DNA from: Klebsiella pneumoniae
GTDB lineage: Bacteria > Myxococcota_A > UBA796 > SXON01
Reading direction: 5' to 3'
DNA: 64,000 nucleotides
Assembly (NCBI GenBank): GCA_945861635.1
Contig: CAMAWH010000015.1
Span: forward strand, 36,858 to 100,857
Position 1 is the first letter of the stretch, and each line of letters starts with the position of its first letter. The notes beneath the pieces were generated by a model, which was not told the DNA's origin, searched no databases, and saw only the letters and a program-made list of their open reading frames with translations. This document shows, in pieces, positions 6,639-18,664 of this stretch. A program made the translations under genes and the position numbers.

Positions 6639-7988
6639 TTAGTCCCGTGCAAGCTCGTAGTTCGTCACGTAGACGGCCGCCGCGTAGTAGCCGCCCTCCG
6701 CGACGGCGGAGGTGCTCGCTCCAGAAATGCGAACGAAATAATCCCCCGGATCAGCGGGTAGGTTGACGACGTGCGGGTCCTCGCCGTCGAACGCATCCTC
6801 GGCCAACACGCTTCCACTTGCGTCGAGCACCGCAACGGTTGCCGCGAGCATCGAGCCGTACGCCGAGGCCCACATGTCCACGGTAATGTAGGCGTCCGCT
6901 GTGGTGACGGTGATTTCGTAGACGTCGGCCAGGTCGTCGATCCCGAGCGTGCCCTGGGTCCCGCGCGACCACGCCTCTCCCGAATCGACATCGACCGCGT
7001 CCAGTGGAAGCGCCGTGGCCACGTCCACGTCGTCGTTCGGCTCCACTTCCCGACTCCTGGCGCCGAAACCCTCCTCTTGGACCTGTACGAAGGCGACACC
7101 CCACGTGTTCGCGTCCCCGGCCGCGCGGGCATCCTCCGCCCCCAAAACGTATCGTGTGCCGGCGGCGCCGACGAGCCATGCCGCATCTTCGGAAGTTGGG
7201 GCTGCCTTTTCGAGAATGGTCTCGCCATCCGTGTTGCGCAGCGTGTACACCGGCTCCGCCGTCGATCCATCGACGTGCGTTGCGCCAACGACAGAGAGCC
7301 AGGTGTCTGTATACGCAAGGTCAATCCTCTGATAATCGATATCTCCAGCCTCCCCGAGCACCCAGAGGAAAGGATAGATGTATCCGGAGGCAGGTTCGAT
7401 GTCGGATCCAGTGCTCTGGGGACTATCGGGCTCCGCGCCGGCGGAGGCTTCCTTGACCGTGAGCAGATAGTCGCTGCCGAATCCACCGACCGGTGACTCG
7501 CCATAAAATGTAGAATAATCCTCGACTTTGACGTAATATGTTCCCGCCTCGGCGAGGTACGCGAAGCACACCGAATCGTCGACGGAAACGCTTCCGGCCG
7601 GGTGCTCGTCCTCCCACGCAACGCGGTGACCAGCCGAGTCAAAAATACTGACGACGCTGTTGAGGTCGTTGTCGTCTTCAAAGGTATTGACCTGGACACG
7701 CGCGAATTCCCCGCCCTCCGCCGTGATCGCGAACCAATCGGTGTCTCCGGCGGGATTGATCAGGCCGCCGATCTCGGTTTCCCAGAAGATTGCGGTGGCG
7801 GTGGCGGCGTCGTTGTCGCGATCTCCGGCGGTGCACGCCTCCTGTTCGCAGATGTAGCCGGCCTTGCAGCCGTCGTCGTTTTCGCAGGTGATGGACTCGG
7901 CAGCGTCGGAGCCGCCGTCCGTCTTTGCGGAGGGGGCAGGGGTACAGGCGGGGAGGATCAGGAGGGGGAGGGGAAGAAGGAATTGCAT
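6639..7988 (-). CDS. lipoprotein with Cys-rich N-terminus and PPC-like (pre-peptidase C-terminal) domains
   Basis: LILPAC lipobox; C..DDGC..GYIC....C; repeated GDTDWF / EVEPND / GTYYVKV motifs. Confidence 0.7.
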   Translation of the reverse strand: MQFLLPLPLLILPACTPAPSAKTDGGSDAAESITCENDDGCKAGYICEQEACTAGDRDNDAATATAIFWETEIGGLINPAGDTDWFAITAEGGEFARVQVNTFEDDNDLNSVVSIFDSAGHRVAWEDEHPAGSVSVDDSVCFAYLAEAGTYYVKVEDYSTFYGESPVGGFGSDYLLTVKEASAGAEPDSPQSTGSDIEPASGYIYPFLWVLGEAGDIDYQRIDLAYTDTWLSVVGATHVDGSTAEPVYTLRNTDGETILEKAAPTSEDAAWLVGAAGTRYVLGAEDARAAGDANTWGVAFVQVQEEGFGARSREVEPNDDVDVATALPLDAVDVDSGEAWSRGTQGTLGIDDLADVYEITVTTADAYITVDMWASAYGSMLAATVAVLDASGSVLAEDAFDGEDPHVVNLPADPGDYFVRISGASTSAVAEGGYYAAAVYVTNYELARD

Positions 7989-8133
7989 GGGCGCCAGCGT
8001 AGCATTCGATCGGGGGAATGGGGTGGAAGTCGCCAAGGCGGGGTGCACGCCACGTTCGTGGTGGACGACGACAATGGATGCGGTTGCGCCCCATTTGATG
8101 TAGGATTCGCCGCCCTCGGAAGGACAGCTGTGC

Positions 8134-8366
8134 GAGCGCTCACTGGCATCAAACCGACCGCCGCGCCCCCCTCACGGTCGGCCTTTGCGGCCGACCTCCG
8201 TGGGCGGGCTACGCCGACTACCGGCCTTGTCGGCCGGTGCGCTCGCAGCGCTCGCGCCGTCGGCTCCGCGGGCGCGGCGGTCCTCCCGGTGGCTGGGGTG
8301 CAGCGGCCTCCGCATCGGAACTCCCGTTGAGAGCGCTCACTGGCATCAAACCGACCGCCGCGCCCC
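8134..8366 (+). repeat. 36-bp direct repeat of the trpS 5' end flanking a 161-bp palindromic insert
   Basis: GAGCGCTCACTGGCATCAAACCGACCGCCGCGCCCC is identical at 8134-8169 and 8331-8366. The insert holds hairpins GGTCGGCC..GGCCGACC and ACCGGCC..GGCCGGT. Confidence 0.9.
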
Positions 8367-9316
8367 ACATCGGCAACCTGCTGGGAATGATCGAACCCGC
8401 CCTACGATTACAGTCGGATCACGACGCCTACTACTTCATCGCCGACTACCACGCGCTTACGACGCTTCATGACCGGGAGCGGATGCGGACGTACTCGACC
8501 GAAGTCGCCGCCACCTGGCTCGCGCTCGGCCTCGATCCAGCACGCACGGCGCTGTTTGTTCAGAGTGATGTCCCCGAAGTCACTGAGCTTTCCTGGTTCC
8601 TGTCCTGCGTCATCGGAATGGGGGTGCTCGAACGCGCGCACGCGTACAAGGCGGCGCAGGATCAGGGTGTTGACATCAATGCCGGCACCTTCACCTACCC
8701 GGTGCTCATGGCTGCGGACATTCTCGCCTACGACTCCAACCTCGTTCCCGTCGGTCGCGACCAGAAGCAGCACGTCGAGATGGCAAAGGACATGGCGGCG
8801 GCATTCAACGCCCGCTTTGGCGGACCGGTGCTGACGCTTCCGGAACCGCTGATCCGCGACGACGTCGCGACGATTCCCGGCCTCGATGGCAGGAAGATGT
8901 CGAAATCCTATTCCAACACCATCGAGGTGTTTGCCGACCCGAAGGCGCTTCGAAAAAAGGTGATGGCGATCGTGACCGACTCCCGCGGCCTCGACGACCC
9001 CAAGGACCCGGACACCGACAACGTGTTTGCGCTCTTTCGATTGTTCGCCACGCCCGAAAGGACAGCCGATCTGGCCCGTCGGTATCGCTTGCCCGGCCTC
9101 GGCTACGGCCACGCGAAGCAAGAATTGTTCGAGGTGATGGAAAACAGACTTGCGCCAGCGCGCGAGAGGTATGCGGAACTCCTCGCCGATCCATCGCGCA
9201 TCGACCGAGTGCTAGAAGATGGCGCCGATCGGGCTCGTCGAGTGGCCACGGCGACACTAGAGCGTGTGCGCGACGCGACGGGAATTCGCCGCGCGCCACG
9301 GGCGACCCGCCAATGA
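8327..9316 (+). CDS. trpS: tryptophan--tRNA ligase
   Basis: TGIKPT..PHIGN (HIGH), YPVLMAADIL, VPVGRDQKQH and KMSKS motifs; TTG start at 8327. Confidence 0.95.
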   Translation: MRALTGIKPTAAPHIGNLLGMIEPALRLQSDHDAYYFIADYHALTTLHDRERMRTYSTEVAATWLALGLDPARTALFVQSDVPEVTELSWFLSCVIGMGVLERAHAYKAAQDQGVDINAGTFTYPVLMAADILAYDSNLVPVGRDQKQHVEMAKDMAAAFNARFGGPVLTLPEPLIRDDVATIPGLDGRKMSKSYSNTIEVFADPKALRKKVMAIVTDSRGLDDPKDPDTDNVFALFRLFATPERTADLARRYRLPGLGYGHAKQELFEVMENRLAPARERYAELLADPSRIDRVLEDGADRARRVATATLERVRDATGIRRAPRATRQ

Positions 9317-9396
9317 CCCCGCGCCCCTTGCACACTGAAAAAAGGGACTGCGCGGGATCATTACGTTCCCATGCGGACTGCAAGCCATTCGTTCAG

Positions 9397-9443
9397 TTCT
9401 TGACAACTTCTTGACAATCCGAGGAGAGGATTGGTTCTATTAA
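9397..9443 (+). promoter_or_regulatory. tandem TTCTTGACAA repeats (two TTGACA -35-like boxes) upstream of the sigma factor
   Basis: TTCTTGACAA at 9397-9406 and 9408-9417, followed by AT-rich TTCTATTAA at 9435-9443. Confidence 0.45.
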
Positions 9444-9577
9444 GGACCGCTCGCAACCGCGAAACCTTCCCGATCTTCCCGCCCTCGTCCCGCTCGCCGG
9501 GGAATAACTCCTCCCTCCCGGCCATTACCGCCCCCAACCCGCGTCACCCCCCGACGCACTTCCCTCTCGGGTGTCCC

Positions 9578-10624
9578 ATGTCGCTTCGCATCCGCTCTTC
9601 CGCTTCCGATGGTGCTCGCCGCCGGTCCGAACGGCTCACCGCTGAAGAAGAGAAGGCCATCGCACGTGAAATCCGCAAGGCCGAGCAGGTCGCGCGTGAA
9701 AGTGTTGCCGGCATTGACGCCGCTGAAAACATCCTGCGCCGCCGTCCGGATCGTGCCGAGCGCACCCGCGCGGGCGCGGTCGATCGCCTCGAAGAAGCCG
9801 TTCGCGCCGTCGCCAAGACCGCTCGGAAGGATGACACGCTCCGCCCGTACGCTCGCCGCGCGCAGGGTGCGTGGCAGCAGGCCGAGGAGCTGCGTTGGCG
9901 CCTTGCGATGAGTGGGCGGCGTATTGCCCATGGTGAAGCACGCAAGCTGGCCGGTCCATTCATGGACGAAGAGGATCTGGTGCAGGAGGGCTACATCGGC
10001 TTGCTGCGCGCGGCCAAGCGCTTCGATCCGGACCGTGGCATCCGGTTCTCCACCTACGCCCGTTGGTGGGTTCGCGCGCAGATGACGCGCGCGATTGACC
10101 ACACCGGTCGCCCGGTCCGCCTGCCCGGGTGCGCGGTCGAGCAGACGCGCAACCTCCGAAAGGCCATGAAGCGCTTCGAGGCCGACGGCGTCGAGTACAA
10201 CGTGGCCGATCTCGCCGAAGAGGTGGGCATCGACAAGGAGCGCGCCGAGTTGCTGCTTTCGCAGGGCAACACGATTTCGCTGGAGCAGCCCGTCGATGAC
10301 GGCCCGCGTCCTCGCCCGCTTGAGCGGTTTTTGTCCGACGAGGACGCCGTCCAGCCCGACGAGGAGAGCATCCAGGTGCAGGAACTCACGCGCATGCACA
10401 AGGCCTTCCACGGCGTGCTGTCGGAGCGTCAGCGCTTCGTCCTCACCCGCCGCTACGGTCTTGAAGACGGAGAATTCCGCACCCTGTCGGAAGTCGGCAA
10501 AGAAATGGGCCTTTCACGTGAGCGCGTGCGTCAGATCGAGCGTGAAGCGCTGATCCGCCTTCGCGAGCAGAGCGGCATCCGTGACCTGCGCGGTCTGGTT
10601 CTCGGAGAGCCGGGAGAAGCGTAG
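9578..10624 (+). CDS. RNA polymerase sigma-70 factor, RpoD/RpoS-like without region 1.1
   Basis: DLVQEGYIGLLRAAKRFDPDRGIRFSTYARWWVR (region 2) and TLSEVGKEMGLSRERVRQIE (region 4). Confidence 0.92.
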   Translation: MSLRIRSSASDGARRRSERLTAEEEKAIAREIRKAEQVARESVAGIDAAENILRRRPDRAERTRAGAVDRLEEAVRAVAKTARKDDTLRPYARRAQGAWQQAEELRWRLAMSGRRIAHGEARKLAGPFMDEEDLVQEGYIGLLRAAKRFDPDRGIRFSTYARWWVRAQMTRAIDHTGRPVRLPGCAVEQTRNLRKAMKRFEADGVEYNVADLAEEVGIDKERAELLLSQGNTISLEQPVDDGPRPRPLERFLSDEDAVQPDEESIQVQELTRMHKAFHGVLSERQRFVLTRRYGLEDGEFRTLSEVGKEMGLSRERVRQIEREALIRLREQSGIRDLRGLVLGEPGEA

Positions 10625-10645
10625 GTTCGTCGCGGGAAGCATCCC

Positions 10646-11566
10646 GTGCGTGACAATCCCGTCCAGTTCGCCGTAGTCCGTGAGGATCCGGCGGTGGAGC
10701 TGGCGTTGTTGGCGCGCTATTCGGCGCCGCGGGTGCTGCTCGTGGGGAGCGGCGGCTGCACGGCGCTGACGATTGCGTCAGCGCTTCCGGATGCGGACAT
10801 CCTGCTCGTCGACATGAATCGTGCTCAGCTGGCGCTCGTCCGTCGGAAAGTGGAGGCGCTCGCAGCGGGCGTCACGGAGGGGGACTGGGCGTTGGACGAA
10901 GACGATGCTGCGGCCCTGGACGGCTGTGGGAACTTCGAATCGCTCTTCCGTGTGTTTCGGACCATCCTCCACGAGTTTGTGGCGAGTGACGCCGAAATTC
11001 TCGAGGTCGTGCGCGGAACGCGCGGTGTGACCGCGCTGACGGAGGCGTCGTACTGGCCGGTTGCGTTCGAAATGTGCTTCGCGGATGCGCCACTGGTCGC
11101 CATGTTCGGACCGGCCGCGGTGCAACACGCGCCGAAGGGGGCGTATCCAGCCTATTTTCAACGGGCGATCGGGGAAGGATTGTCGGCCGCCGACCGCGCC
11201 ACCAACCGTTTTCTGCACCAGTTCCTGCTCGGACGCACGTTGCCGGAGGCGCGCCCACCGTTCCTGACCTCGCCGCCCGCTGCCCCGTGCTTCGACTACC
11301 GGCAGAGTCGCGTTGAGGAGGTACCTGGCCTTGATCGGTTCGATCTCGTCAGCCTGTCCAACGTGATGGACTGGATGCCCGATGACGCGGCCGAGGCGCT
11401 TTGCCGTCACGCCGCCGCGCACATGCGCGTCGGAGCAACGGTGGTCTGGCGGCAGCTCTACAATCCGAAGGATTATCGTCCATTTTTCTCGGAATTTTCG
11501 TGGGAACGGACAGTGCCGGACCGATCTTTGTTCTATTCTTCGGTGCATGCCGGCAGGAAGCGCTGA
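10646..11566 (+). CDS. DUF3419 / BtaA-like SAM-dependent transferase
   Basis: N-terminal FAVVREDP.VE; LLVGSGGCTAL SAM-binding loop; VDMNRAQL; LSNVMDWM. Confidence 0.7.
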   Translation: MRDNPVQFAVVREDPAVELALLARYSAPRVLLVGSGGCTALTIASALPDADILLVDMNRAQLALVRRKVEALAAGVTEGDWALDEDDAAALDGCGNFESLFRVFRTILHEFVASDAEILEVVRGTRGVTALTEASYWPVAFEMCFADAPLVAMFGPAAVQHAPKGAYPAYFQRAIGEGLSAADRATNRFLHQFLLGRTLPEARPPFLTSPPAAPCFDYRQSRVEEVPGLDRFDLVSLSNVMDWMPDDAAEALCRHAAAHMRVGATVVWRQLYNPKDYRPFFSEFSWERTVPDRSLFYSSVHAGRKR

Positions 11567-11567
11567 G

Positions 11568-12260
11568 GTGGGGGCCGAATTGCACGAGACGATCGAAGGC
11601 GTTCTCGCGGACATGCGCTGGCGAGAGAATCCATATTTCACTGCGTTGGAGGCTGGTAGCTTCGACCGCAAGGATTTTGTCGAGACGCAGATTCAATTCT
11701 ATCAAGCTGTGGTGTTTTTCAGTCGGCCGATGGCGGCGTTGTGCGGCAAGATTCCTTCCTCGGAGCAGCGCATCGCCATCCTCCGGAACGTGTGGGAAGA
11801 GCACGGCGAGGGAGATGCGCGGATGGCGCACGGGGCAACGTTTCGGCTGCTTTTGCGACGCCTTGCCGACATAGAACCAATCGATATCGACCGCCGAACG
11901 CTTTGGCCGGAGGTTCGGGTATTCAACACCACGCTGGCCGGGGTCTGCGTGCTGGACGACTATGTCGTTGCGTGTGCGGCGATGGGGATGATCGAGCGGA
12001 GTTTCGCCGAAATCAGCGGCTGGATCGGCCGGGGAATCGTGGCGAATGGTTGGCTCACCCGCCAGGACCTGGTTCACTACGATTTTCATGAGCGCGTGGA
12101 CATCCGCCACGCCGACGACTTTTTTGCGGTGATCGAGCCGGAGTGGCCAGCGGCGCGGTACGACATTGAGCAGGGCCTCCGCTTGGGTGCATCCGTTTTC
12201 TCGGGGTTGTACCGGGGGCTGTGGGACGGTCGGGCGCGCCGCCTCGTGCGGGGCGAGTGA
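11568..12260 (+). CDS. heme-oxygenase-like diiron enzyme (CADD/PqqC/TenA superfamily)
   Basis: NVWEEHG....AH, GMIE and FHERVDIRH give the E-H-E-H-D-H dimetal ligand pattern. Confidence 0.8.
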   Translation: MGAELHETIEGVLADMRWRENPYFTALEAGSFDRKDFVETQIQFYQAVVFFSRPMAALCGKIPSSEQRIAILRNVWEEHGEGDARMAHGATFRLLLRRLADIEPIDIDRRTLWPEVRVFNTTLAGVCVLDDYVVACAAMGMIERSFAEISGWIGRGIVANGWLTRQDLVHYDFHERVDIRHADDFFAVIEPEWPAARYDIEQGLRLGASVFSGLYRGLWDGRARRLVRGE

Positions 12261-13058
12261 GTGCGCATTCTTGTCATGGACGCGACCAACCGACAGCGAT
12301 GGGTACCTGGAATCGTGGCGTTGGAGGCTGGTGCGTCGTATCCGCTGGGGTCCGACCGGTTCACCATCGACCATGGCGCTGATTACTTCGCGTTTTTCGA
12401 GCGGATGGGCGAGCTACGGTACTATCTCGCGGTAGAAGGAGAGGAAGTTCTTGCGGTTGGCTGCGGCATTTTGCGCCGCGAGCCCCGCGTCTGGTACCTG
12501 TGCGACGTGAAGGTGCGGGCCGACGCGCGTGGCCGGCACATACCCCTGTGGATGATGGATCACGGATTTCTCCCGAACTACCTGCGGTGTCAGCGCGGGT
12601 ATGCCGTGACGATGGACCCACCGACGGGAGAAAACCGCGTGGTGCGCCTGGCTATGCGCTTCCGGTGGCTGTCGGTGGGGGTCGGGCCGAAATTGCGCAT
12701 CTGGTCACTGACGGCAGCGGACGCCGCGCGGGTGTCTCCGGTGCTGGAACGACACCGGGGCGTCGTAAGGTGGAACTCGTTGGTAGGCGTGAAGGACCTT
12801 GTTCTGGCCTCGACCGGGAGGCCGATGGCGTTGTTGCATGCGGAGTTTGGGCCGGAGAGAGGCCCGGAGAGAGGGCCGGACCGAGGGCCGAAGCGTCTGC
12901 CGGTCGATGGTGCGGTTCACATGTTTTGTGCGCCGGACGGGGACGCGCTGACGAGCGAGCTCGCGGCCGCGGGGGTGTTGCCCTCGGCGTCCGCGTCGAT
13001 CATTCACCATCGGATGGGCGCGCAGGATTGGCGGTTTGTGAGGACGGATGAGATTTGA
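12261..13058 (+). CDS. GNAT-fold acyltransferase-like protein
   Basis: YPLG.DRF.IDHG.DYFAFFERMG; WYLCDVKVRADARGRH resembles the acyl-CoA-binding motif A; starts right after the previous stop. Confidence 0.6.
   Translation: MRILVMDATNRQRWVPGIVALEAGASYPLGSDRFTIDHGADYFAFFERMGELRYYLAVEGEEVLAVGCGILRREPRVWYLCDVKVRADARGRHIPLWMMDHGFLPNYLRCQRGYAVTMDPPTGENRVVRLAMRFRWLSVGVGPKLRIWSLTAADAARVSPVLERHRGVVRWNSLVGVKDLVLASTGRPMALLHAEFGPERGPERGPDRGPKRLPVDGAVHMFCAPDGDALTSELAAAGVLPSASASIIHHRMGAQDWRFVRTDEI
12849..12896 (+). repeat. in-frame 12-bp tandem repeat x4 (GPER/GPER/GPDR/GPKR)
   Basis: GGGCCGGAGAGA GGCCCGGAGAGA GGGCCGGACCGA GGGCCGAAGCGT. Confidence 0.8.
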
Positions 13059-13072
13059 GAGGCCACGCCCGC

Positions 13073-13930
13073 TCAACTCCCCAAACGCCGCACCCACCGA
13101 CTCACATCCACCATCAACCTGGTAAAACTCGGCGCAACGAACAATGTGTCCTGGTACCGCGTCGGGTCGAATGGCGTCTGGGCCATCGCCTCCAGATCCC
13201 AGTCCAACAACCGTGCGTGCGTCGCGTAGTCTGCAAGTTCCCCGCAGGAAGAAAGCAATCCCGCCCCGAACGCCCGCGTGCCGCTCCCCTCGGCGACGAC
13301 GCCGAATTCCATCGTGTACCAGTACACCCGGTCGAGCGCGCGCATCTCCGGTTCACCGGCAACCTCCGCGGCACGACCAAGCAGGCGATTCAGCTCTGCA
13401 ATTCCAGGGTGGACGAGTGTCGCGGCGTGACCGACCAACTCATGGACGACATCGGGCTCGGGTGTGTAGAAAGGCCGAGAATCATGGCGTATGTACTGGG
13501 TAGACAGAAAAACGCGCCGGCCCAGGTGCCGCATGAACGTCCGGGGCGTCACCAACCCCGCCACCGGCTCCATCCGAAAGCCCGCGACCGCCTCAAGCAC
13601 AGGATTCAACACCGACAGTTGAGGAATTCGACGTCGATCCAACGGCAAAACCGCCTGCAGCTCAAGGATCTCGCGGCAGACATGCGCCTCGTGCAGGCCG
13701 CCCAGCTTCGCCCACACGGACGCCCACACGCCGTGCTCCGCTTCGGTGTACGGCGCGTCGGGAATCTCCCCGCCACTGGCATAGTCGAGAGCGATTCGCG
13801 CAATGGCGTTACGCCGCCGCCGATAGGTATCGTCCCGGAAGCCGGGGTGGTCGGGGTCGAGCGGAACGAGATCCGCCGCGCCGCCGGCGTGCGGGGTCAG
13901 GATGTCACCGTCGGGCGCACCGACATCCAC
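13073..13930 (-). CDS. phhA: phenylalanine 4-monooxygenase (pterin-dependent aromatic amino acid hydroxylase)
   Basis: DHPGF.D..YR.RR, TQYIRH, YTPEPDVVHELVGH, YWYTMEFG and GAGLLSS motifs; GTG start estimated. Confidence 0.9.
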   Translation of the reverse strand: MDVGAPDGDILTPHAGGAADLVPLDPDHPGFRDDTYRRRRNAIARIALDYASGGEIPDAPYTEAEHGVWASVWAKLGGLHEAHVCREILELQAVLPLDRRRIPQLSVLNPVLEAVAGFRMEPVAGLVTPRTFMRHLGRRVFLSTQYIRHDSRPFYTPEPDVVHELVGHAATLVHPGIAELNRLLGRAAEVAGEPEMRALDRVYWYTMEFGVVAEGSGTRAFGAGLLSSCGELADYATHARLLDWDLEAMAQTPFDPTRYQDTLFVAPSFTRLMVDVSRWVRRLGS

Positions 13931-14904
13931 AGCGCAGCCAGAACGTCCACACCGTCGTGAAGCCGGTCGGCAGGCGGGCGCTGCATCTCCCCCGGATAGC
14001 ACAGCCGCGGTGGCGGCAGCGCGGGGTGGACAAGTCCGACGGAAACGGGGTCAAACCCGGGAAGATCCGTGGCGATGGTGCCGAGGTGCACGCGATACTG
14101 CCCGATTGCGGCAGCGACCTCTGCGACGTCATTGAACGGGTGGACGGTGATCAGGCGCGGAAGGGCGATGGGCCAGAACTGCACCGGTGGAAGGCGTAAA
14201 ACGCACCAATTCGAGGCCGAGCGCCGTTCTCCCACCGCCCGGGCGAGCGTCACCCGTGCGCGGAGGTTGGCCGCCTCCTCCGGAGTCACGGGGCCGCGCG
14301 GCAAGGATCCCTCCAGTTCGCCAAGTAGCGTCGCAAGAAGGTCAATGTCGGAGGTGCGCGCAAACACCGCAGCAGGCGACATGCAGCCGCGTCCATCGTA
14401 GAGGACGTGGTCCATCACCGTCGCCTTGCCGGGAGCGCTGACGATGCTGATGCCGAACTTGGGACCGAACGGGAGGTAGCGGACCCCAGGGGGGATACGT
14501 TGGCCGATGGCGTTGAGCGTTTCCGCGCGACCAAAGCCGAGGATTCCATCCGCCTCGCGCATCGCCAGACCCTCGGCCGCCAAATCGCCGCCCTCCCAGG
14601 TGCGTACTTCGACGCCCGGAATGGCCGTCGCGATGGCGTGCGCGATGGACTCTTGCCCCGTCGCCGGCTTCAGGAGCACGCGAACGCCCCGATGCGCCAG
14701 TTGGACGCACCATTCCACGGGCGCAGTGAACACGTTTCCGCTCGCGATGATCAGCACGGCGCGCGGTGGGGTTCCGGGGATGGACCGCGCCAACGCGTCG
14801 GGACCGATGCACGAGAGCGCCGCAAGCCACGCCGCCCGCGAGCCCGCCGACGACAGCCCGGTGGGCCAGTCGGCGGGGTCCAGCGCGCGGAGCCGTTCGA
14901 GCAT
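13897..14904 (-). CDS. LuxC-like acyl-CoA/acyl-protein reductase
   Basis: IIASGNVF, LLKP, FGRAET, FGPKFG and DGRGCMSP (catalytic Cys) motifs. Confidence 0.75.
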   Translation of the reverse strand: MLERLRALDPADWPTGLSSAGSRAAWLAALSCIGPDALARSIPGTPPRAVLIIASGNVFTAPVEWCVQLAHRGVRVLLKPATGQESIAHAIATAIPGVEVRTWEGGDLAAEGLAMREADGILGFGRAETLNAIGQRIPPGVRYLPFGPKFGISIVSAPGKATVMDHVLYDGRGCMSPAAVFARTSDIDLLATLLGELEGSLPRGPVTPEEAANLRARVTLARAVGERRSASNWCVLRLPPVQFWPIALPRLITVHPFNDVAEVAAAIGQYRVHLGTIATDLPGFDPVSVGLVHPALPPPRLCYPGEMQRPPADRLHDGVDVLAALWMSVRPTVTS

Positions 14905-14944
14905 GGCGGGCGTTTAACGCAGCGAGCCACGGCCGACGACGGAC

Positions 14945-15916
14945 CTACTGCGCGCGCGCCAACAGCTGTTCGGCGCGCAGGGAACATCCCCGCGCCTCCG
15001 CGCCGGCCAATCGTCCCGTGAGCGTTACCCATTCGCCGCACACGGTGCCGACATCCTGCGTCTCGATCGCGCAGACGCTGTCCACGTTGGCCAGATCGAG
15101 GAAGCGGAGCGCACCGACGCCGTCGATGGCCGCCCCCGATGCAGGGTCCACGGCCCACGCGCGCATCCATGGGGGCAGTCGGAACGCGCCGGGGATTTCT
15201 CCTGCGGCCACGGGTGCCGTCCATAGCTGAGAAGAAAGCTCCGTCATGCCGTACTCACCGCGTACTTGAGCGCCGGGGACTCTCGCGCCGAGGCTTCGGT
15301 AGAGCGTATCGCTGTCCAGACGGTGCACCCGCCCCTTGAACCCGCCCGTCACCATCACCAGCGTCCCCGTCGTCAGCCGGCCCGCGTTCGCCTCCGGTTC
15401 CGACGCCGATCCCTCCTGCCTCGCAAGCAGCGCGTCCATGGCAAAGGCCGTGCTCGCCAGAAAGCATGGGCTCGACAGAATGCGGCTCCATGCGTCGGCA
15501 TGCATACCTGCCTCATCCATACAATAGTCCGGCGATCCCACGAGGCGAACCATGTGATCCAGCGAGGATGCATCGTCACGACTGACGAGCGAGACCACGC
15601 GCTTTGGAAATCCGCGCATCTGCCGGGTGGCCCCGAGGTCGTACAGCGTCGTATCGCGCATGCGATGAGCACCGCGGCGTCCCTCGGTTGTGCCGCTCGT
15701 AAGGAAGCAGATCGGGGCGTCCGGGAACGGACACAGGTCGAGGTCCTTGAACAACGACACCGGCACGGCGGGGATTTCGACCGGCCCACGCGGCCGCGCG
15801 TCGCCCGCAATCCGGGCGTAGACCGGGTTTGCGGCCCGCTGTTGCGCGAACAGCTCCAGCGCCAGTTGATCAAAGTCCCCAACACCCTTGACGAACGCTG
15901 CGATTTTCTCCTTCAC
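14945..15916 (-). CDS. LuxE-like acyl-protein synthetase
   Basis: FLTSGTT, TGGFKG, EYGMTELSSQ, DLAN.DS...IETQD and GR...AEARGCS motifs. Confidence 0.85.
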   Translation of the reverse strand: MKEKIAAFVKGVGDFDQLALELFAQQRAANPVYARIAGDARPRGPVEIPAVPVSLFKDLDLCPFPDAPICFLTSGTTEGRRGAHRMRDTTLYDLGATRQMRGFPKRVVSLVSRDDASSLDHMVRLVGSPDYCMDEAGMHADAWSRILSSPCFLASTAFAMDALLARQEGSASEPEANAGRLTTGTLVMVTGGFKGRVHRLDSDTLYRSLGARVPGAQVRGEYGMTELSSQLWTAPVAAGEIPGAFRLPPWMRAWAVDPASGAAIDGVGALRFLDLANVDSVCAIETQDVGTVCGEWVTLTGRLAGAEARGCSLRAEQLLARAQ

Positions 15917-17142
15917 GCCATGGCCTCGATGGCGCCGGCAAGCTGATCGCGCGTGATCGTGAGCGGCGGTGTGAACGCGACCACCTCCGCGTTTTCTCCC
16001 GCCGGAAGCGCAATGTAGCCGCGATCCAGCATTCTCCTGCATCTACCAAGCGAATCGTCGACCACCGCGCCGACCATCAGCCCGCGTCCAGTGACGCGGC
16101 GGACGCCGGGCAGGCGGTCCAATTCGCCACGGAGCCACTCCCCGTCCTCTCGGGCCTTCTGCAAAAGTCCGCCGAGCACGCGGAGAGATGCCAATGCCAT
16201 CGCGCATCCGACTGGATTGCCGAGAAAGGTCTGGGTGTGGATGGCCTGTCCGGTGGACGCGCCCCAGGCGTCCATGACCGAGGCGGTGCCGAGGCAGGCC
16301 GAAATGGGAAAACCTCCCCCGAGGGCCTTGCCTACGCACAACAGGTCCGGCCGCAGCTCCGAGGCCAACCATCCACCGGTTCTGCCGAGCCCGCTGAAAA
16401 TCTCGTCGTGAACCACGAGACATCCAGCGTCGCGCGCTTTGGCGTGCAGATTCAGCAACCACCCAGCGGGGGGCTCCCGCATGCCGCCGCGCCCCTGCAC
16501 GGGCTCCACGATGACGCATGCCATCTGCCGCAGATCGGGAAGTTCTCCGCCAAACTCCGTGAGGTCGGCATGTGCGCCGAGCATTGCCGCAAACGGGGCG
16601 CGAAACGGCGCCCGCTGGTACCCGAGCGCGGCGAGCGGCGCGCTCGCGAGCCCATGATACCCGCCTGAGAACGAGAGGATTCTCGTACGGCGCGTCGCGA
16701 TGATCGCCGACTTGATCGCCGCCTCCACGGCATCGCTGCCGGAGCTTCCCAGGATCACCCTCTCCATTCCTGTGATGTCGCACAAACGTTCCATCAGTTC
16801 GATGCGCCGGGGGTCGGCGAAAGCGTCGCCCATAGCGTGAGGAAGCGTCGCAAGCTGGCGCTGTCCTGCGGACACGATGGTCGGATTTCGATGCCCCGCA
16901 CTCGCGACGCCGAATCCCGCCGTGAGATCGACGAAAACGTTGCCGTCGACGTCCTTCACGTTCGCGCCGAGAGCCTCCGCCCAAACGATGGGGTCAGCGT
17001 CCGCCAGACCGAGAGAGGCTGCCCGGCGCGAGCGCCGCGACGTGATGGCGGGGCATTCGCGTAGCGCGAGTCGGTCCACCCAGGCCCGCGATCTTGGGCC
17101 CGGGATTGCGGTTGTCAGCCGTGGAAGGTCTGCGCCAGTCAC
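15913..17142 (-). CDS. class III PLP-dependent aminotransferase
   Basis: FVDLTAGFGV...GH, SGSDAVEAAIK, GGYHG, VEPVQGRGG, DEIFSGLGRTG and GKALGGGFP motifs; GTGA overlap with luxE. Confidence 0.9.
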   Translation of the reverse strand: MTGADLPRLTTAIPGPRSRAWVDRLALRECPAITSRRSRRAASLGLADADPIVWAEALGANVKDVDGNVFVDLTAGFGVASAGHRNPTIVSAGQRQLATLPHAMGDAFADPRRIELMERLCDITGMERVILGSSGSDAVEAAIKSAIIATRRTRILSFSGGYHGLASAPLAALGYQRAPFRAPFAAMLGAHADLTEFGGELPDLRQMACVIVEPVQGRGGMREPPAGWLLNLHAKARDAGCLVVHDEIFSGLGRTGGWLASELRPDLLCVGKALGGGFPISACLGTASVMDAWGASTGQAIHTQTFLGNPVGCAMALASLRVLGGLLQKAREDGEWLRGELDRLPGVRRVTGRGLMVGAVVDDSLGRCRRMLDRGYIALPAGENAEVVAFTPPLTITRDQLAGAIEAMA

Positions 17143-17209
17143 GCCCGCCGCTAACCCGTAGCTAGAGTTGGGGAAGCGCGGCGGCGCTCCCTCGGGTAGA
17201 GTCGGCGCG

Positions 17210-18664
17210 ATGTTCGCACTCCTCCTGTTCTGGCCGCTCGCGTGTTCGCCGCCCGAAGTGGTCACGATCGCCGGCCGTTCGGGGGCTGTCGAGGTGCGCC
17301 TCGTCAACCCCACGACGTGCTCAACCTGTGATCCGTTCGAAACGGTGGACACCCTCCGGATCGATGTCCTGAGGCATGGCGCCGTCGTCGCCAGTGATTC
17401 CTTCCGCTATCCGGAGGAAGATCCGGTATTGCCGGGTCTCGACGAGTACGGCGTTGTCCGCATTCAGTTGGTCGGCTTGTCGGCGGGCGTTGTCGTGAGC
17501 GCCGGACGCTCGGACGAGGTTTCGGTGGACCCGGAAGGCACGCTCTCCGTTCCCATCGTCTTTTTGCCGGTGAACCGAGACGTGCCGGTAACGGCAAAGA
17601 TGGCGTCGCACCGCTCGAACCACGTTGCGCTGCGGCTGCGCAACGGCACCGTCTTGATCGCCGGCGGTGCATCCGTGAAACGAGACGCCGCGTTTGCGAC
17701 GACCGAGGTCTACGACCCGGCATCGGGTACGTTCAGCGCAGGACCCGGGGAACTGCCGGGGAAGGTGGCGGAACCTCGCGTTGTGGTGCTGCCCGAAGGA
17801 GACACGATGTTCATCGGTGGCTACGCAATCGGCGCCGACACCTCCACGTCCGCGTCCACCGCCGTCAGCGTTTTCAGCGAGGAGGCCGGCACGATTACCG
17901 CCACCGGAAGTTTAGCTCAACCCCGTGCCGGTCACTGCGTCTCGCTGTTCCGTTCGCGCCAAGGCATCGTGTTTGGGGGAAACACCGACACGAATCAGGC
18001 GGACTTCTTCCGCAGTGACGCCGTCGGCGCCGCGTTCACGTTCAGCGGCGTGCCGATGCAGAATTTGGTCCAGGGAAATGTCACGGGCTGCGTCGCTCTG
18101 GCGGACGGTCGAACCTTCGTTCAGGGTTCGGATGCTGCAAGTACGGGAATCTGGAACTACACCGAGGAAACCGCTGGGCAGATCGACCCGGGCAATGCGT
18201 TCGAGCCGATCAACCCCGGCGCCCCCAAGGCGCGCTTTGTGGCCGGGGAGATCGTCGTGCCGTTGGCGGAAGGAAGCGCGTGGATCGCCGGTGGCGCGGA
18301 CACCACGACGGGTGAAGTGCTCAGCGTAGGCCGGGAATTTCGACCTGATTCCGCGGCGTTCGCGGACGCGGCCGGCCTCGCGCGCCCCGCATACGGCGCA
18401 AAGTGGACGCCGTGGATGGACGCTGGCCTTATTGCCGTGGGATGCGGCTGGCAGGATACCGCGCGCACGATTCCCACAGGGGGCATCGAATTGTTGGATC
18501 CGCTCGGGGTGGAAGTTGGCGTTACGATCGCCCTTGATCGGGGACGAAACGGATGTTCGATTACGACGCTCAACGACGGTTCCCTGCTGATCGCCGGCGG
18601 TTTCACGGACGGGGAGAAGAATAGCATCGACGCGGCCCTCGTGATTCCGTGGATAGAGGATTGA
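17210..18664 (+). CDS. Kelch-repeat lipoprotein
   Basis: PLAC lipobox; R..H....L.NG.VLIAGG and EVYDP Kelch repeats. Confidence 0.75.
   Translation: MFALLLFWPLACSPPEVVTIAGRSGAVEVRLVNPTTCSTCDPFETVDTLRIDVLRHGAVVASDSFRYPEEDPVLPGLDEYGVVRIQLVGLSAGVVVSAGRSDEVSVDPEGTLSVPIVFLPVNRDVPVTAKMASHRSNHVALRLRNGTVLIAGGASVKRDAAFATTEVYDPASGTFSAGPGELPGKVAEPRVVVLPEGDTMFIGGYAIGADTSTSASTAVSVFSEEAGTITATGSLAQPRAGHCVSLFRSRQGIVFGGNTDTNQADFFRSDAVGAAFTFSGVPMQNLVQGNVTGCVALADGRTFVQGSDAASTGIWNYTEETAGQIDPGNAFEPINPGAPKARFVAGEIVVPLAEGSAWIAGGADTTTGEVLSVGREFRPDSAAFADAAGLARPAYGAKWTPWMDAGLIAVGCGWQDTARTIPTGGIELLDPLGVEVGVTIALDRGRNGCSITTLNDGSLLIAGGFTDGEKNSIDAALVIPWIED

Follow-up and report, generated by a model that had tools for sequence, protein, structure and literature searches.

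The DNA analysed here (the window, the whole stretch of 64,000 nucleotides) raises the question of what is made by three tightly packed genes, g1, g2 and g3, which the open reading frame listing and a reading of the junctions place on one strand between positions 10646 and 13058. A sequence-only reading had assigned them to the DUF3419, heme-oxygenase-like and GNAT families and suggested a small uncharacterised pathway making a metabolite, metallophore or lipid head group. The features discussed are as follows.

9431-10624, + strand: sigma-70 family factor, with Sigma70_r2 and r4 Pfam matches (context only)
10646-11566, + strand: g1, predicted short DUF3419 (BtaA-family) class I SAM-dependent transferase, 306 aa
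11568-12260, + strand: g2, predicted heme-oxygenase-like dimetal oxidase, 230 aa; alternative start ATG 11547
12261-13058, + strand: g3, predicted compact tandem-GNAT acyltransferase of NMT-like architecture, 265 aa; alternative start ATG 12276

Organization of the locus

The sigma-70 open reading frame stops at TAG 10622-10624, 21 nt before the GTG start of g1 at 10646. The g1 stop (TGA 11564-11566) is followed by a single nucleotide and the g2 start (GTG 11568), and the g2 stop (12258-12260) directly by the GTG of g3 at 12261, so that the 1- and 0-nt gaps reported earlier are borne out, with alternative starts possible. The listed reading frame holding g2 extends from 11382 to 12260, and use of ATG 11547 would give a 20-nt overlap with g1; the database product of g2 (P0001, 230 aa) agrees with the start at 11568, and that of g3 (P0121, 260 aa) with ATG 12276, which leaves a 15-nt gap. 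The packing is tight whichever g2 and g3 starts hold.

The position directly after a sigma factor, also remarked on earlier, is real here but is not a property of the family, as tblastn recovered the sigma factor in 0/80 related loci; it scores under every NCBIfam equivalog cut-off. The genes that follow g3 are likewise no conserved partners. Scanning of 9200-13400 for promoters and terminators gave no signal above shuffled expectation, searches of the window and 19 loci for riboswitches and other RNA families returned tRNAs only, and the PADLOC (defence) and PHROGs (phage) libraries contain no match for g1, g2 or g3. No membrane segment is predicted in any of g1, g2 and g3, and none is markedly hydrophobic (GRAVY -0.1 to -0.2), which speaks against a lipid product; the pI is 5.8 for g1 and 5.9 for g2, both acidic, and g3 is basic (median pI 9.0).

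Conservation and distribution of the three genes

We collected 80 genome loci selected by the oxidase (g2) alone, and 80 metagenome loci selected by the acyltransferase (g3). All three genes are present in 77/80 genome loci, 74 of them in the order g1-g2-g3 (median gaps 12 and 24 nt), and g1 adjoins g2 in 79/80. The full set is present in 56/80 metagenome loci, where no fewer than four arrangements occur (g1-g2-g3 in 31, g2-g1-g3 in 22, plus others). Two metagenome loci (L120 and L127) have g1 directly followed by g3 and no oxidase was found in them; where a partner is missing (L120, L014 and L011), no replacement oxidase or acyltransferase is present among the neighbours. Oxidase-acyltransferase fusion proteins also occur (P0241, P0242 and the partial P0245), and the pairwise-identity matrices of g1, g2 and g3 correlate with r of 0.84-0.91, a level reached by 0/500 permutations. 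Together these are strong evidence that the three genes are functionally coupled.

Three contigs from giant-virus MAGs carry the full trio and were reached via the g3 profile, and a g3-like gene is present in a 1.26-Mb viral record (L088); searching viral contigs with the oxidase profile gave 36 pattern matches, none of which was confirmed. The sequence-only reading had staked its proposal on the triplet recurring in other genomes, and with genome, metagenome and giant-virus loci all containing it, the objection that it is not conserved fails.

Carriers are bacteria labelled as at least eight phyla, with free-living, predatory and host-associated lifestyles, in addition to the giant viruses. 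They include a contig labelled Candidatus Vogelbacteria and a 1.4-Mb endosymbiont genome. Carriage by intracellular bacteria, predators, sponge symbionts and giant viruses would raise the question of a role at cell-cell interfaces. Within the phylum the distribution is patchy (11/301 genomes), and the other genomes of the same family lack the trio (0/4). We tentatively propose that the trio constitutes one self-contained and horizontally mobile pathway. No Pfam or NCBIfam model, solved structure or paper that we found names its product, in keeping with its earlier description as uncharacterised, and we found no literature linking DUF3419/BtaA or aminocarboxypropyl transfer to a heme-oxygenase-like oxidase. 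None of the papers that surfaced for DUF3419 deals with the trio; in a passage of PMC7923214, DUF3419 appears just as a listed neighbour gene. Papers on heme-oxygenase-like oxidases in gene neighbourhoods with methyltransferases or GNATs were unrelated.

This distribution bears on whether the trio could modify a macromolecule, such as tRNA, rRNA or a protein N-terminus. Its retention in a 1.4-Mb genome and on giant-virus contigs would suit such a role, as would the basic character of g3 and its resemblance to the protein-modifying NMT (described below). Aminocarboxypropyl groups, hydroxylations and acetylations are all known on RNA. However, patchiness of this kind is what accessory metabolism typically shows, unlike core modification of RNA; the g1 and g2 products are both acidic; and neither Pfam nor NCBIfam detected an RNA-binding domain, so that we regard macromolecule modification as very unlikely.

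g1, a putative short-form DUF3419 enzyme

The g1 product matches Pfam DUF3419 (PF11899) in two stretches with 67.1 bits (cut-off 28.2), and the genome-wide profile search gives the same gene 38.7 + 27.9 bits. Using hhalign, the g1 family aligns with the full-length paralogue from its own genome (98.7% probability, 300 columns) and with a 330-bit full-length DUF3419 member (98.5%, 294 columns), sharing the motifs (R/W)EDP, S-G/A-G, D-x-N/S-x-x-Q, G-x-FE, NYF and DW(M). At 306 aa it is short for the 385-position profile, with weak or no match near profile positions 78-125, and is about 80-100 residues shorter than full-length members; relatives aligned by tblastn are about 247-335 aa, compared with about 385-415 aa for the BtaA-proper architecture. 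Judged from these alignments, g1 is a distinct short DUF3419 subfamily, other than plain BtaA.

To our knowledge BtaA is the sole DUF3419 enzyme with a characterised function. It converts diacylglycerol and SAM to diacylglyceryl-O-homoserine, as described in PMC10685587. To BtaA-type proteins g1 is homologous over its whole length. The BtaA/BtaB system makes the betaine lipid DGTS in bacteria and is fused as Bta1 in algae and fungi; the trio differs from it in lacking a linked BtaB N-methyltransferase and in having a dimetal oxidase and an acyltransferase as fixed partners. Nothing BtaB-like lies next to the trio here, as had been pointed out before, and no methyltransferase, BtaB included, is a conserved neighbour in the 80 + 80 loci. 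The amine that BtaB would methylate is more likely acylated in this system.

Another account of g1 is that it is a plain BtaA making DGTS with a distant BtaB, with g2 and g3 as unrelated neighbours, and its score above the DUF3419 cut-off is as expected for this. The linkage data largely refute such an account, as g2 and g3 are kept with g1 in 77/80 loci despite changes in gene order; furthermore, g1 is shorter and falls in its own subfamily, and a second, full-length DUF3419 gene (206.8 bits) lies elsewhere in this genome, among other neighbours. A full-length paralogue is present as a separate gene in only 9/40 carrier genomes. We find the plain BtaA account scarcely credible, and the earlier suspicion that betaine-lipid synthesis is not the obvious role is upheld.

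The AF2 model of g1 (pLDDT 95.2) has a Rossmann core with a helical insert of about 140 residues, a cap that is conserved in the family. Among the best 50 matches, a fold search with VIA returned only generic class I methyltransferases (Z 11-13), headed by the N-methyltransferase domains of OvoA and OvsM (Z 13.1 and 12.1); MtNAS and CntL appear among weak Foldseek matches (E ~3e-3) and are absent from the best 50 with VIA. From fold searches with the predicted model, aminocarboxypropyl and methyl transfer cannot be told apart.

One interpretation is that g1 is an ordinary methyltransferase, in a pathway of methylation, dimetal N- or C-oxygenation and acylation of an amine-bearing substrate, following the logic of SznE/SznF. 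The fold-core matches agree with this, aminocarboxypropyl transfer is known for one DUF3419 member only, and g1 has weak matches to Methyltransf_25/12/11; however, these Pfam matches are below or at their cut-offs, whereas the DUF3419 motifs occur along the whole length of g1, and we think an ordinary methyltransferase unlikely. Similarly low in likelihood is an intramolecular reaction in which g1, as a SAM lyase or cyclase, would form homoserine lactone or azetidine-2-carboxylate, with N-acylation by g3 and oxidation by g2 leading to a signal resembling acyl-homoserine lactones or a detoxified analogue. Class I SAM folds are capable of such reactions, as with AzeJ-type enzymes, and the trio would require only universal substrates (SAM, acyl-CoA and O2), as would suit a module carried by reduced genomes and viruses. 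Against a lyase or cyclase, the BtaA precedent is one of intermolecular transfer, the conserved helical cap is typical of an acceptor pocket, and the trio has no linked receptor gene.

g2, a predicted heme-oxygenase-like dimetal oxidase

The g2 product matches Pfam Haem_oxygenas_2 (PF14518) with 49.6 bits (cut-off 28.9), placing it in the same family as HrmI/BelK, CADD, SznF, UndA and BesC, and like CADD it consists of one domain, about 230 aa long. Its profile matches include HrmI, 4-aminobenzoate synthase and CT610. The putative ligands E78, H88, E143, H174, D178 and H181 are invariant in 30/30 aligned homologues, and all six coincide in the alignment with the E/H/E/H/D/H positions of HrmI and CT610/CADD, which we take to be the metal ligands in HrmI and CT610; the complete ligand set seen in the single sequence thus extends to the family. 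Homologues of g2 are 52-64% identical across phyla, with a mean pairwise identity of about 60%. The nearest solved relatives are HrmI (E 2.6e-7) and pABA synthases (1e-5 to 1e-2), and any solved family member scores only 18-33 bits.

CADD and CT610 suggest a further candidate function, as self-sacrificing pABA synthase, in which Tyr27 and Lys152 of CT610 are presumably the residues consumed. In the HMMER alignment their counterparts in g2 are Phe24 and Ile153, each of them conserved in the g2 family, and because of these replacements such a function is unlikely; g2 scores 20.2 bits with the CADD NCBIfam model TIGR04305, for which the cut-off is 200. Research on heme-oxygenase-like dimetal enzymes is active, and the g2 family is unusually conserved for one with no assigned reaction. 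As far as we know, each new substrate of such an enzyme has so far led to new chemistry.

g3, a predicted tandem-GNAT acyltransferase

The relationship of g3 to the GNATs is not evident from sequence comparison: it scores 17.4 bits with Acetyltransf_1, under the 20.7 cut-off, has no match among NCBIfam models, and a sequence search of solved structures found none. The AF2 model (pLDDT 93.3), however, gives 62 Foldseek matches at E <= 0.001, of which the best ~50 are all GNAT-type acetyl- or acyltransferases, with tandem GNATs at E ~1e-5 and probability 1.0. With VIA, 133 chains match at Z >= 8, and the best are tandem GNATs (Z 11.2-12.9, 203-219 residues aligned, spanning model residues 1-250/265), at sequence identities of 4-12%. 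N-myristoyltransferases match at Z 11.5 and 11.2, with 210 aligned residues that extend to the final one, and the small-molecule GNAT tabtoxin resistance protein at Z 11.1. The structural matches include a histidine acyltransferase solved with N-myristoyl-histidine, and the long-chain acyl users among them speak for an acyl step.

The predicted fold is clearly that of a GNAT with two lobes in one chain, as in N-myristoyltransferase, the clavulanate tandem GNAT, Eis-like proteins, MshD and histidine N-acyltransferase. Thus the families named in the sequence-only reading stand, g1 and g2 through Pfam and g3 through its predicted fold, and the structural comparison it recommended returned a GNAT for g3 and a class I methyltransferase-like fold for g1. 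At 265 aa g3 is much smaller than NMT (> 380 aa), although both have a C-terminus fixed in length and sequence. The family match reaches the final residue (C-terminal ...TSDI) in 145/150 listed g3 members, and the ending ...TSD/E-I is conserved, giant-virus copies included. In NMT the terminal carboxylate is the catalytic base, and the fixed end of g3 recalls this catalytic carboxylate.

Neighbouring genes and the lipid context

Beyond the trio itself there is no further conserved neighbour in the genome or metagenome loci, and an exporter, transporter, receptor or regulator is not a conserved neighbour in the 80 + 80 loci. Lipid-type neighbours are present in a minority. In 16 of the 22 loci with the order g2-g1-g3, a membrane FA_desaturase gene (138-148 bits) is directly upstream, and four of the six without it are cut by a contig end; the 16 include near-identical contigs and represent about 11 distinct sequences. 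This desaturase has no sequence relative in the PDB and was not found in the 64-kb window. L006 and L016 each have a membrane methyltransferase of the ICMT/PEMT type close to the trio, at distances of 6 and 17 nt, and an LCM carboxyl methyltransferase gene overlaps the end of g3 in L063. A multi-pass membrane protein of 245 aa adjoins the trio in nine loci; it has no Pfam match, useful Atlas match or PDB relative, is not related to the ICMT-type neighbour (hhalign 0.1%), and was not found in the window or in this genome (88% complete).

The natural substrate of ICMT is an N-acylated amino acid with a side-chain lipid and a free alpha-carboxyl, an outline that is also that of the product proposed below, and we counted it toward a lipid. 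Such occasional neighbours are a weak hint of a membrane lipid whose carboxyl group is free. Of the product classes envisaged earlier, the lipid head group thereby gains weak support from context and the metallophore gains none, as no transporter or receptor is conserved beside the trio.

A candidate pathway

A plausible, if tentative, scheme is that the trio catalyses SAM-derived homoserine ether formation, N-acylation and O2-dependent oxidation; each chemical step, the acceptor and the product we infer solely from family membership. The g1 enzyme would transfer the 3-amino-3-carboxypropyl (homoserine) part of SAM onto an acceptor hydroxyl, most likely of a membrane lipid or other hydrophobic alcohol, yielding a homoserine-ether head group and methylthioadenosine. 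The free alpha-amino group would then be acylated from acyl-CoA by g3, and g2 with O2 would carry out hydroxylation, desaturation or oxidative decarboxylation of the product, although acylation and oxidation could occur with either first. Such a pathway would end in a homoserine-type lipid or lipo-amino acid that is N-acylated and oxidised and keeps its carboxyl group free. That this product represents a class of membrane lipids or lipo-amino acids not described so far, made by a portable three-gene module from universal precursors, is a more doubtful extension. If true, a new lipid head group would enlarge the small set of bacterial membrane lipids that lack phosphorus. The module requires no other dedicated partner and is directly testable in E. 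coli.

A soluble pathway, which we consider rather unlikely, would begin with transfer of homoserine by g1 to a small polar acceptor, followed by desaturation, N-oxygenation or cleavage by g2 and acylation of an amine or hydroxylamine by g3, the last as tailoring or self-protection, to give for example an enol-ether/vinylglycine-type antimetabolite or a small hydroxamate. In favour of this, g1, g2 and g3 all appear soluble, the nearest solved relatives of g2 act on free amino acids or their own side chains, and the structural matches of g3 extend to small-molecule GNATs, the tabtoxin resistance protein among them; pairing an N-oxygenase with a GNAT is moreover classic hydroxamate logic. However, no exporter, receptor or regulator is conserved beside the trio, no riboswitch is present in the window or 19 loci, the membrane-enzyme neighbours suit a lipid better, and an antibiotic or siderophore fits poorly with carriage by giant viruses, Candidatus Vogelbacteria and a 1.4-Mb endosymbiont.

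Rhizobitoxine offers a precedent for a soluble product, in that a homoserine ether is converted to an enol ether by the desaturase RtxC, presumably a member of the FA_desaturase Pfam family to which the gene in the 16 variant loci also belongs. According to a passage of PMC6304460, RtxC yields the enol-ether amino acid rhizobitoxine from a homoserine ether. By this analogy a soluble homoserine ether can likewise serve as substrate for enzymes of the FA_desaturase family, which counts against reading the desaturase neighbours as a sign of a lipid. The rhizobitoxine ether is made by a PLP enzyme and not from SAM, and unlike the trio that pathway has no GNAT and no heme-oxygenase-like enzyme.

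A parallel in gene content is microcin C, in which MccD (aminocarboxypropyl transfer from SAM) and MccE (with a GNAT domain) are encoded in one small cluster. By description, the trio is without the MccA peptide, the MccB adenylating enzyme and the decarboxylase, and the microcin system is without a dimetal oxidase, but the two have in common the pairing of a SAM aminocarboxypropyl transferase with a GNAT.

Organization of the cassette

Four ORFs run in tandem on one strand, and a group on the opposite strand converges on them, as follows.

9431–10624, +: sigma-70 family factor, first of the four ORFs
10646–11566, +: g1, 306 aa, short DUF3419 (Pfam) SAM enzyme
11568 (GTG)–12260, +: g2, 230 aa, heme-oxygenase-like dimetal oxidase (Pfam Haem_oxygenas_2)
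12261–13058, +: g3, 265 aa, compact tandem-GNAT acyltransferase (sub-threshold Pfam GNAT match)
within 13073–17352, −: biopterin-type aromatic amino-acid hydroxylase (Pfam, 241 bits), converging on the cassette
within 13073–17352, −: LuxC-like acyl-CoA reductase (Pfam, 47.7 bits)
within 13073–17352, −: 365-aa ORF, no Pfam match
within 13073–17352, −: class III aminotransferase (Pfam, 251.9 bits)

The sequence-only reading had placed g1, g2 and g3 1 and 0 nt apart with a sigma factor just upstream, and the junction sequences agree, with gaps of 21 (sigma/g1), 1 (g1/g2) and 0 nt (g2/g3). Alternative starts are present at ATG 11547 (g2) and ATG 12276 (g3), and the database gives the g2 product as 230 aa and the g3 product as 260 aa; the g3 and hydroxylase stops are 14 nt apart. 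Pfam scores are 67.1 bits for g1 (cut-off 28.2), 49.6 for g2 (cut-off 28.9) and 17.4 for g3, the last below its cut-off of 20.7. None of the three has a specific NCBIfam model; the score to the CADD model is 20.2, where the cut-off is 200. Median pI values are 5.8, 5.9 and 9.0 for g1, g2 and g3 respectively, and none is hydrophobic overall. Elsewhere in the window, a 469-aa protein (6639–8048, −) combines an N-terminal hydrophobic stretch with a pre-peptidase C-terminal (PPC) domain and is probably secreted.

Linkage of g1, g2 and g3

A g2 profile built from 30 homologues was used to scan one genome per species, giving 237 pattern matches, 192 of them encoding relatives, and the best 80 of these 192, picked through g2 alone, constitute the genome sample. 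By tblastn, g1 adjoins g2 in 79 of the 80 loci and g3 is present in 77; by profile HMMs, 74 have g1-g2-g3 on a single strand, two have g1-g3-g2 and one has g3 upstream on the opposite strand, with median gaps of 12 and 24 nt between matched parts. Of the three loci without g3, one has a contig edge inside g3 (L043), one has a contig that starts within the cassette with g3 absent downstream (L011), and in the third (L014) g3 was not found within 6 kb. A second, independent sample comprises 80 metagenome loci of 106 relatives, picked through g3. Gene-neighbourhood conservation, the check proposed by the sequence-only reading, is seen in both samples, with all three genes in 77/80 genome and 56/80 metagenome loci. 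The metagenome orders are g1-g2-g3 (31) and g2-g1-g3 (22), plus three further orders seen once each, and most loci lacking a complete trio are on contigs that end less than about 1 kb from the match. At two loci (L120:3870-5813 and L127:347-2192) g1 is followed directly by g3 and the oxidase was not found, L120 having 5 kb on each side.

Because the linkage outlasts this shuffling of gene order, it is strong evidence for a shared function, which is further supported by three fusion proteins, two joining g2 to g3 (P0241, P0242) and one joining a partial g2 (the C-terminal half) to g3 (P0245). Pairwise-identity matrices of g1, g2 and g3 from 74 loci correlate with r = 0.84–0.91, reached in 0 of 500 permutations; this is consistent with inheritance of the trio as one unit, with common organismal descent adding to r. 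The window's sigma factor, hydroxylase and LuxC-like genes occur at 0/80 genome loci (tblastn), no member of the convergent group accompanies the trio in other genomes, and all-vs-all clustering of flank ORFs gives other gene families common only within single lineages.

From the linkage data we regard it as close to certain that g1, g2 and g3 act as three steps of one pathway. Family membership suggests the chemistry: g1 would move the homoserine moiety of SAM onto a hydroxyl group, g2 would oxidise with O2, and g3 would acylate an amine; modification of a macromolecule is less likely. No paper found in a literature search links these families, and no curated model (Pfam, NCBIfam) names them.

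The three enzymes

Conserved motifs in an alignment of 53 g1 sequences are QFAVVREDP, SGGCTA, D-x-N-x-x-Q, GNFE, NYFLHH, LSNI-DWM, RQLNN and DRSLFYS, and hhalign of this family against two full-length DUF3419 proteins gives 98.7% and 98.5% over about 300 columns with the same motifs in register. In the AF2 model (pLDDT 95.2) a class I SAM-binding Rossmann core carries a helical insert of about 140 residues, and fold searches return generic methyltransferase cores only (about 160 of 306 residues aligned, Z 11–13). Methyl transfer by g1, or an intramolecular SAM lyase route, is less likely than homoserine transfer. BtaA, the only characterised DUF3419 enzyme, converts diacylglycerol and SAM to diacylglyceryl-O-homoserine (PMC10685587). 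That g1 is a plain BtaA, the alternative raised in the sequence-only reading, is not supported: the same genome has, on another contig (L082:1483-2589, −; G000:C31:54148-55194), a full-length DUF3419 gene of its own scoring 206.8 bits, and g2 and g3 are kept with g1. Plain DGTS betaine-lipid synthesis is likewise less likely. Judged by eye, the full-length gene lies beside a large membrane ORF and a 462-aa ORF whose C-terminus resembles PEP-utilising enzymes, and it may belong to a different DUF3419 system; such a paralogue occurs in only 9 of 40 carrier genomes. In four Legionella species (loci L059, L070, L074, L077; ~7320-8860) a second, full-length DUF3419 gene (~370 aa, 120–132 bits) follows g3 by 7–33 nt. 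An ankyrin-repeat protein is encoded upstream in L074.

The 30 g2 homologues have 66% mean column identity, with E39, E77, E78, H88, E143, H170, H174, D178 and H181 invariant. The g2 profile matches the solved structures of HrmI (E 2.6e-7), a 4-aminobenzoate synthase (1e-5) and CT610/CADD (0.0098), and E78, H88, E143, H174, D178 and H181 align with the corresponding E/H/E/H/D/H residues, bearing out the full ligand set first read from the sequence. Since the ligand positions are invariant and aligned with solved relatives, g2 is predicted to be an intact dimetal enzyme. It is not, on these alignments, a CADD-type 4-aminobenzoate (pABA) synthase, an identity rejected because the sacrificial tyrosine and lysine of CT610 are replaced by Phe24 and Ile153.

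The g3 AF2 model (pLDDT 93.3) resembles tandem-GNAT proteins. Foldseek matches (E ~1e-5) are Eis-like proteins, the clavulanate tandem GNAT and a histidine acyltransferase, one of whose entries contains N-myristoyl-histidine, and VIA Z scores to tandem GNATs of 12.9–11.2 include two N-myristoyltransferases (NMTs) aligned through the model's last residue. The family comprises 305 clusters at E <= 1e-30 (783 at 1e-10, 990 at 1e-3) among 1.84 billion representatives. Among the matches listed, the match reaches the protein's final residue in 145 of 150 members, and the end (...T-S-D/E-I) is conserved. In NMT the C-terminal carboxylate is the catalytic base, which the conserved g3 C-terminus may recall by analogy.

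Neighbouring genes and the possible product

There is no universal extra partner among the flanking genes, and occasional co-directional neighbours lean towards membranes. In 16 of the 22 g2-g1-g3 loci a membrane FA_desaturase gene (PF00487, 138–148 bits) is directly upstream (L135–L178, e.g. L142:1990-3000), giving the operon order FA_desaturase, oxidase, DUF3419, GNAT; near-identical contigs are among the 16 metagenome loci, which amount to about 11 distinct sequences, and of the remaining six loci four are truncated at the start of the contig. This variant is probably cyanobacterial, as it has a CpeT/CpcT neighbour in L154. An ICMT/PEMT-family membrane methyltransferase gene follows g3 by 6 nt in L006, and another precedes g1 by 17 nt in L016; an LCM-type carboxyl methyltransferase gene overlaps the end of g3 (L063), and a VTT/DedA protein and a phospholipase/carboxylesterase each occur once (L042 and L081, respectively). 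A 245-aa conserved multi-pass membrane protein (motifs WWGPGF, SAWI-DQIE and DADRTRRTF) adjoins the trio at nine loci (L003:1413-2213, L024:4262-5023 and seven more; gaps of 4–8 nt in four) in records of Oligoflexia, Gammaproteobacteria, Coxiellaceae and Finniella, and searches of Pfam, PDB and the Atlas found no relatives. Assigning 65 close co-directional neighbours to Pfam families gave otherwise lineage-specific genes only; no riboswitch was found in the window or at 19 of the loci, and no defence or phage family matched.

A lipid product would be consistent with the desaturase and membrane neighbours, and a product with a free carboxyl group with the carboxyl-methyltransferase neighbours. 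The product tentatively suggested here is a homoserine-ether lipid or lipo-amino acid that has been N-acylated and oxidised. A soluble metabolite of the homoserine-ether or hydroxamate type is the main alternative and less likely; in its favour, rhizobitoxine offers a precedent for desaturase action on a homoserine ether (PMC6304460).

Distribution

By record title, carriers include Bdellovibrionota-type groups (Oligoflexales, Bacteriovoracaceae, Bdellovibrio), Myxococcota, Planctomycetota, Candidatus Poribacteria, Pyrinomonadaceae/Acidobacteria, Legionella, Coxiellaceae, Lysobacterales, Burkholderiales and Candidatus Finniella, together with one Bacillota and one Candidatus Vogelbacteria MAG, labels that for MAGs can be wrong. 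The module is accessory and patchy, since the oxidase occurs (E <= 1e-40) in 11 of 301 sampled genomes of the window's own phylum and in none of four other genomes of the same family. The g3 profile also matched four viral records. In a 1.26-Mb record (L088) the 6 kb around the match show a g3-like gene but neither partner, and three giant-virus MAG contigs (L085:1309-4288, L086:4726-7684 and L087:3876-7289; GC 26–28%) have divergent g1-, g2- and g3-like genes side by side, their g3 copies keeping the ...LTSDI end.
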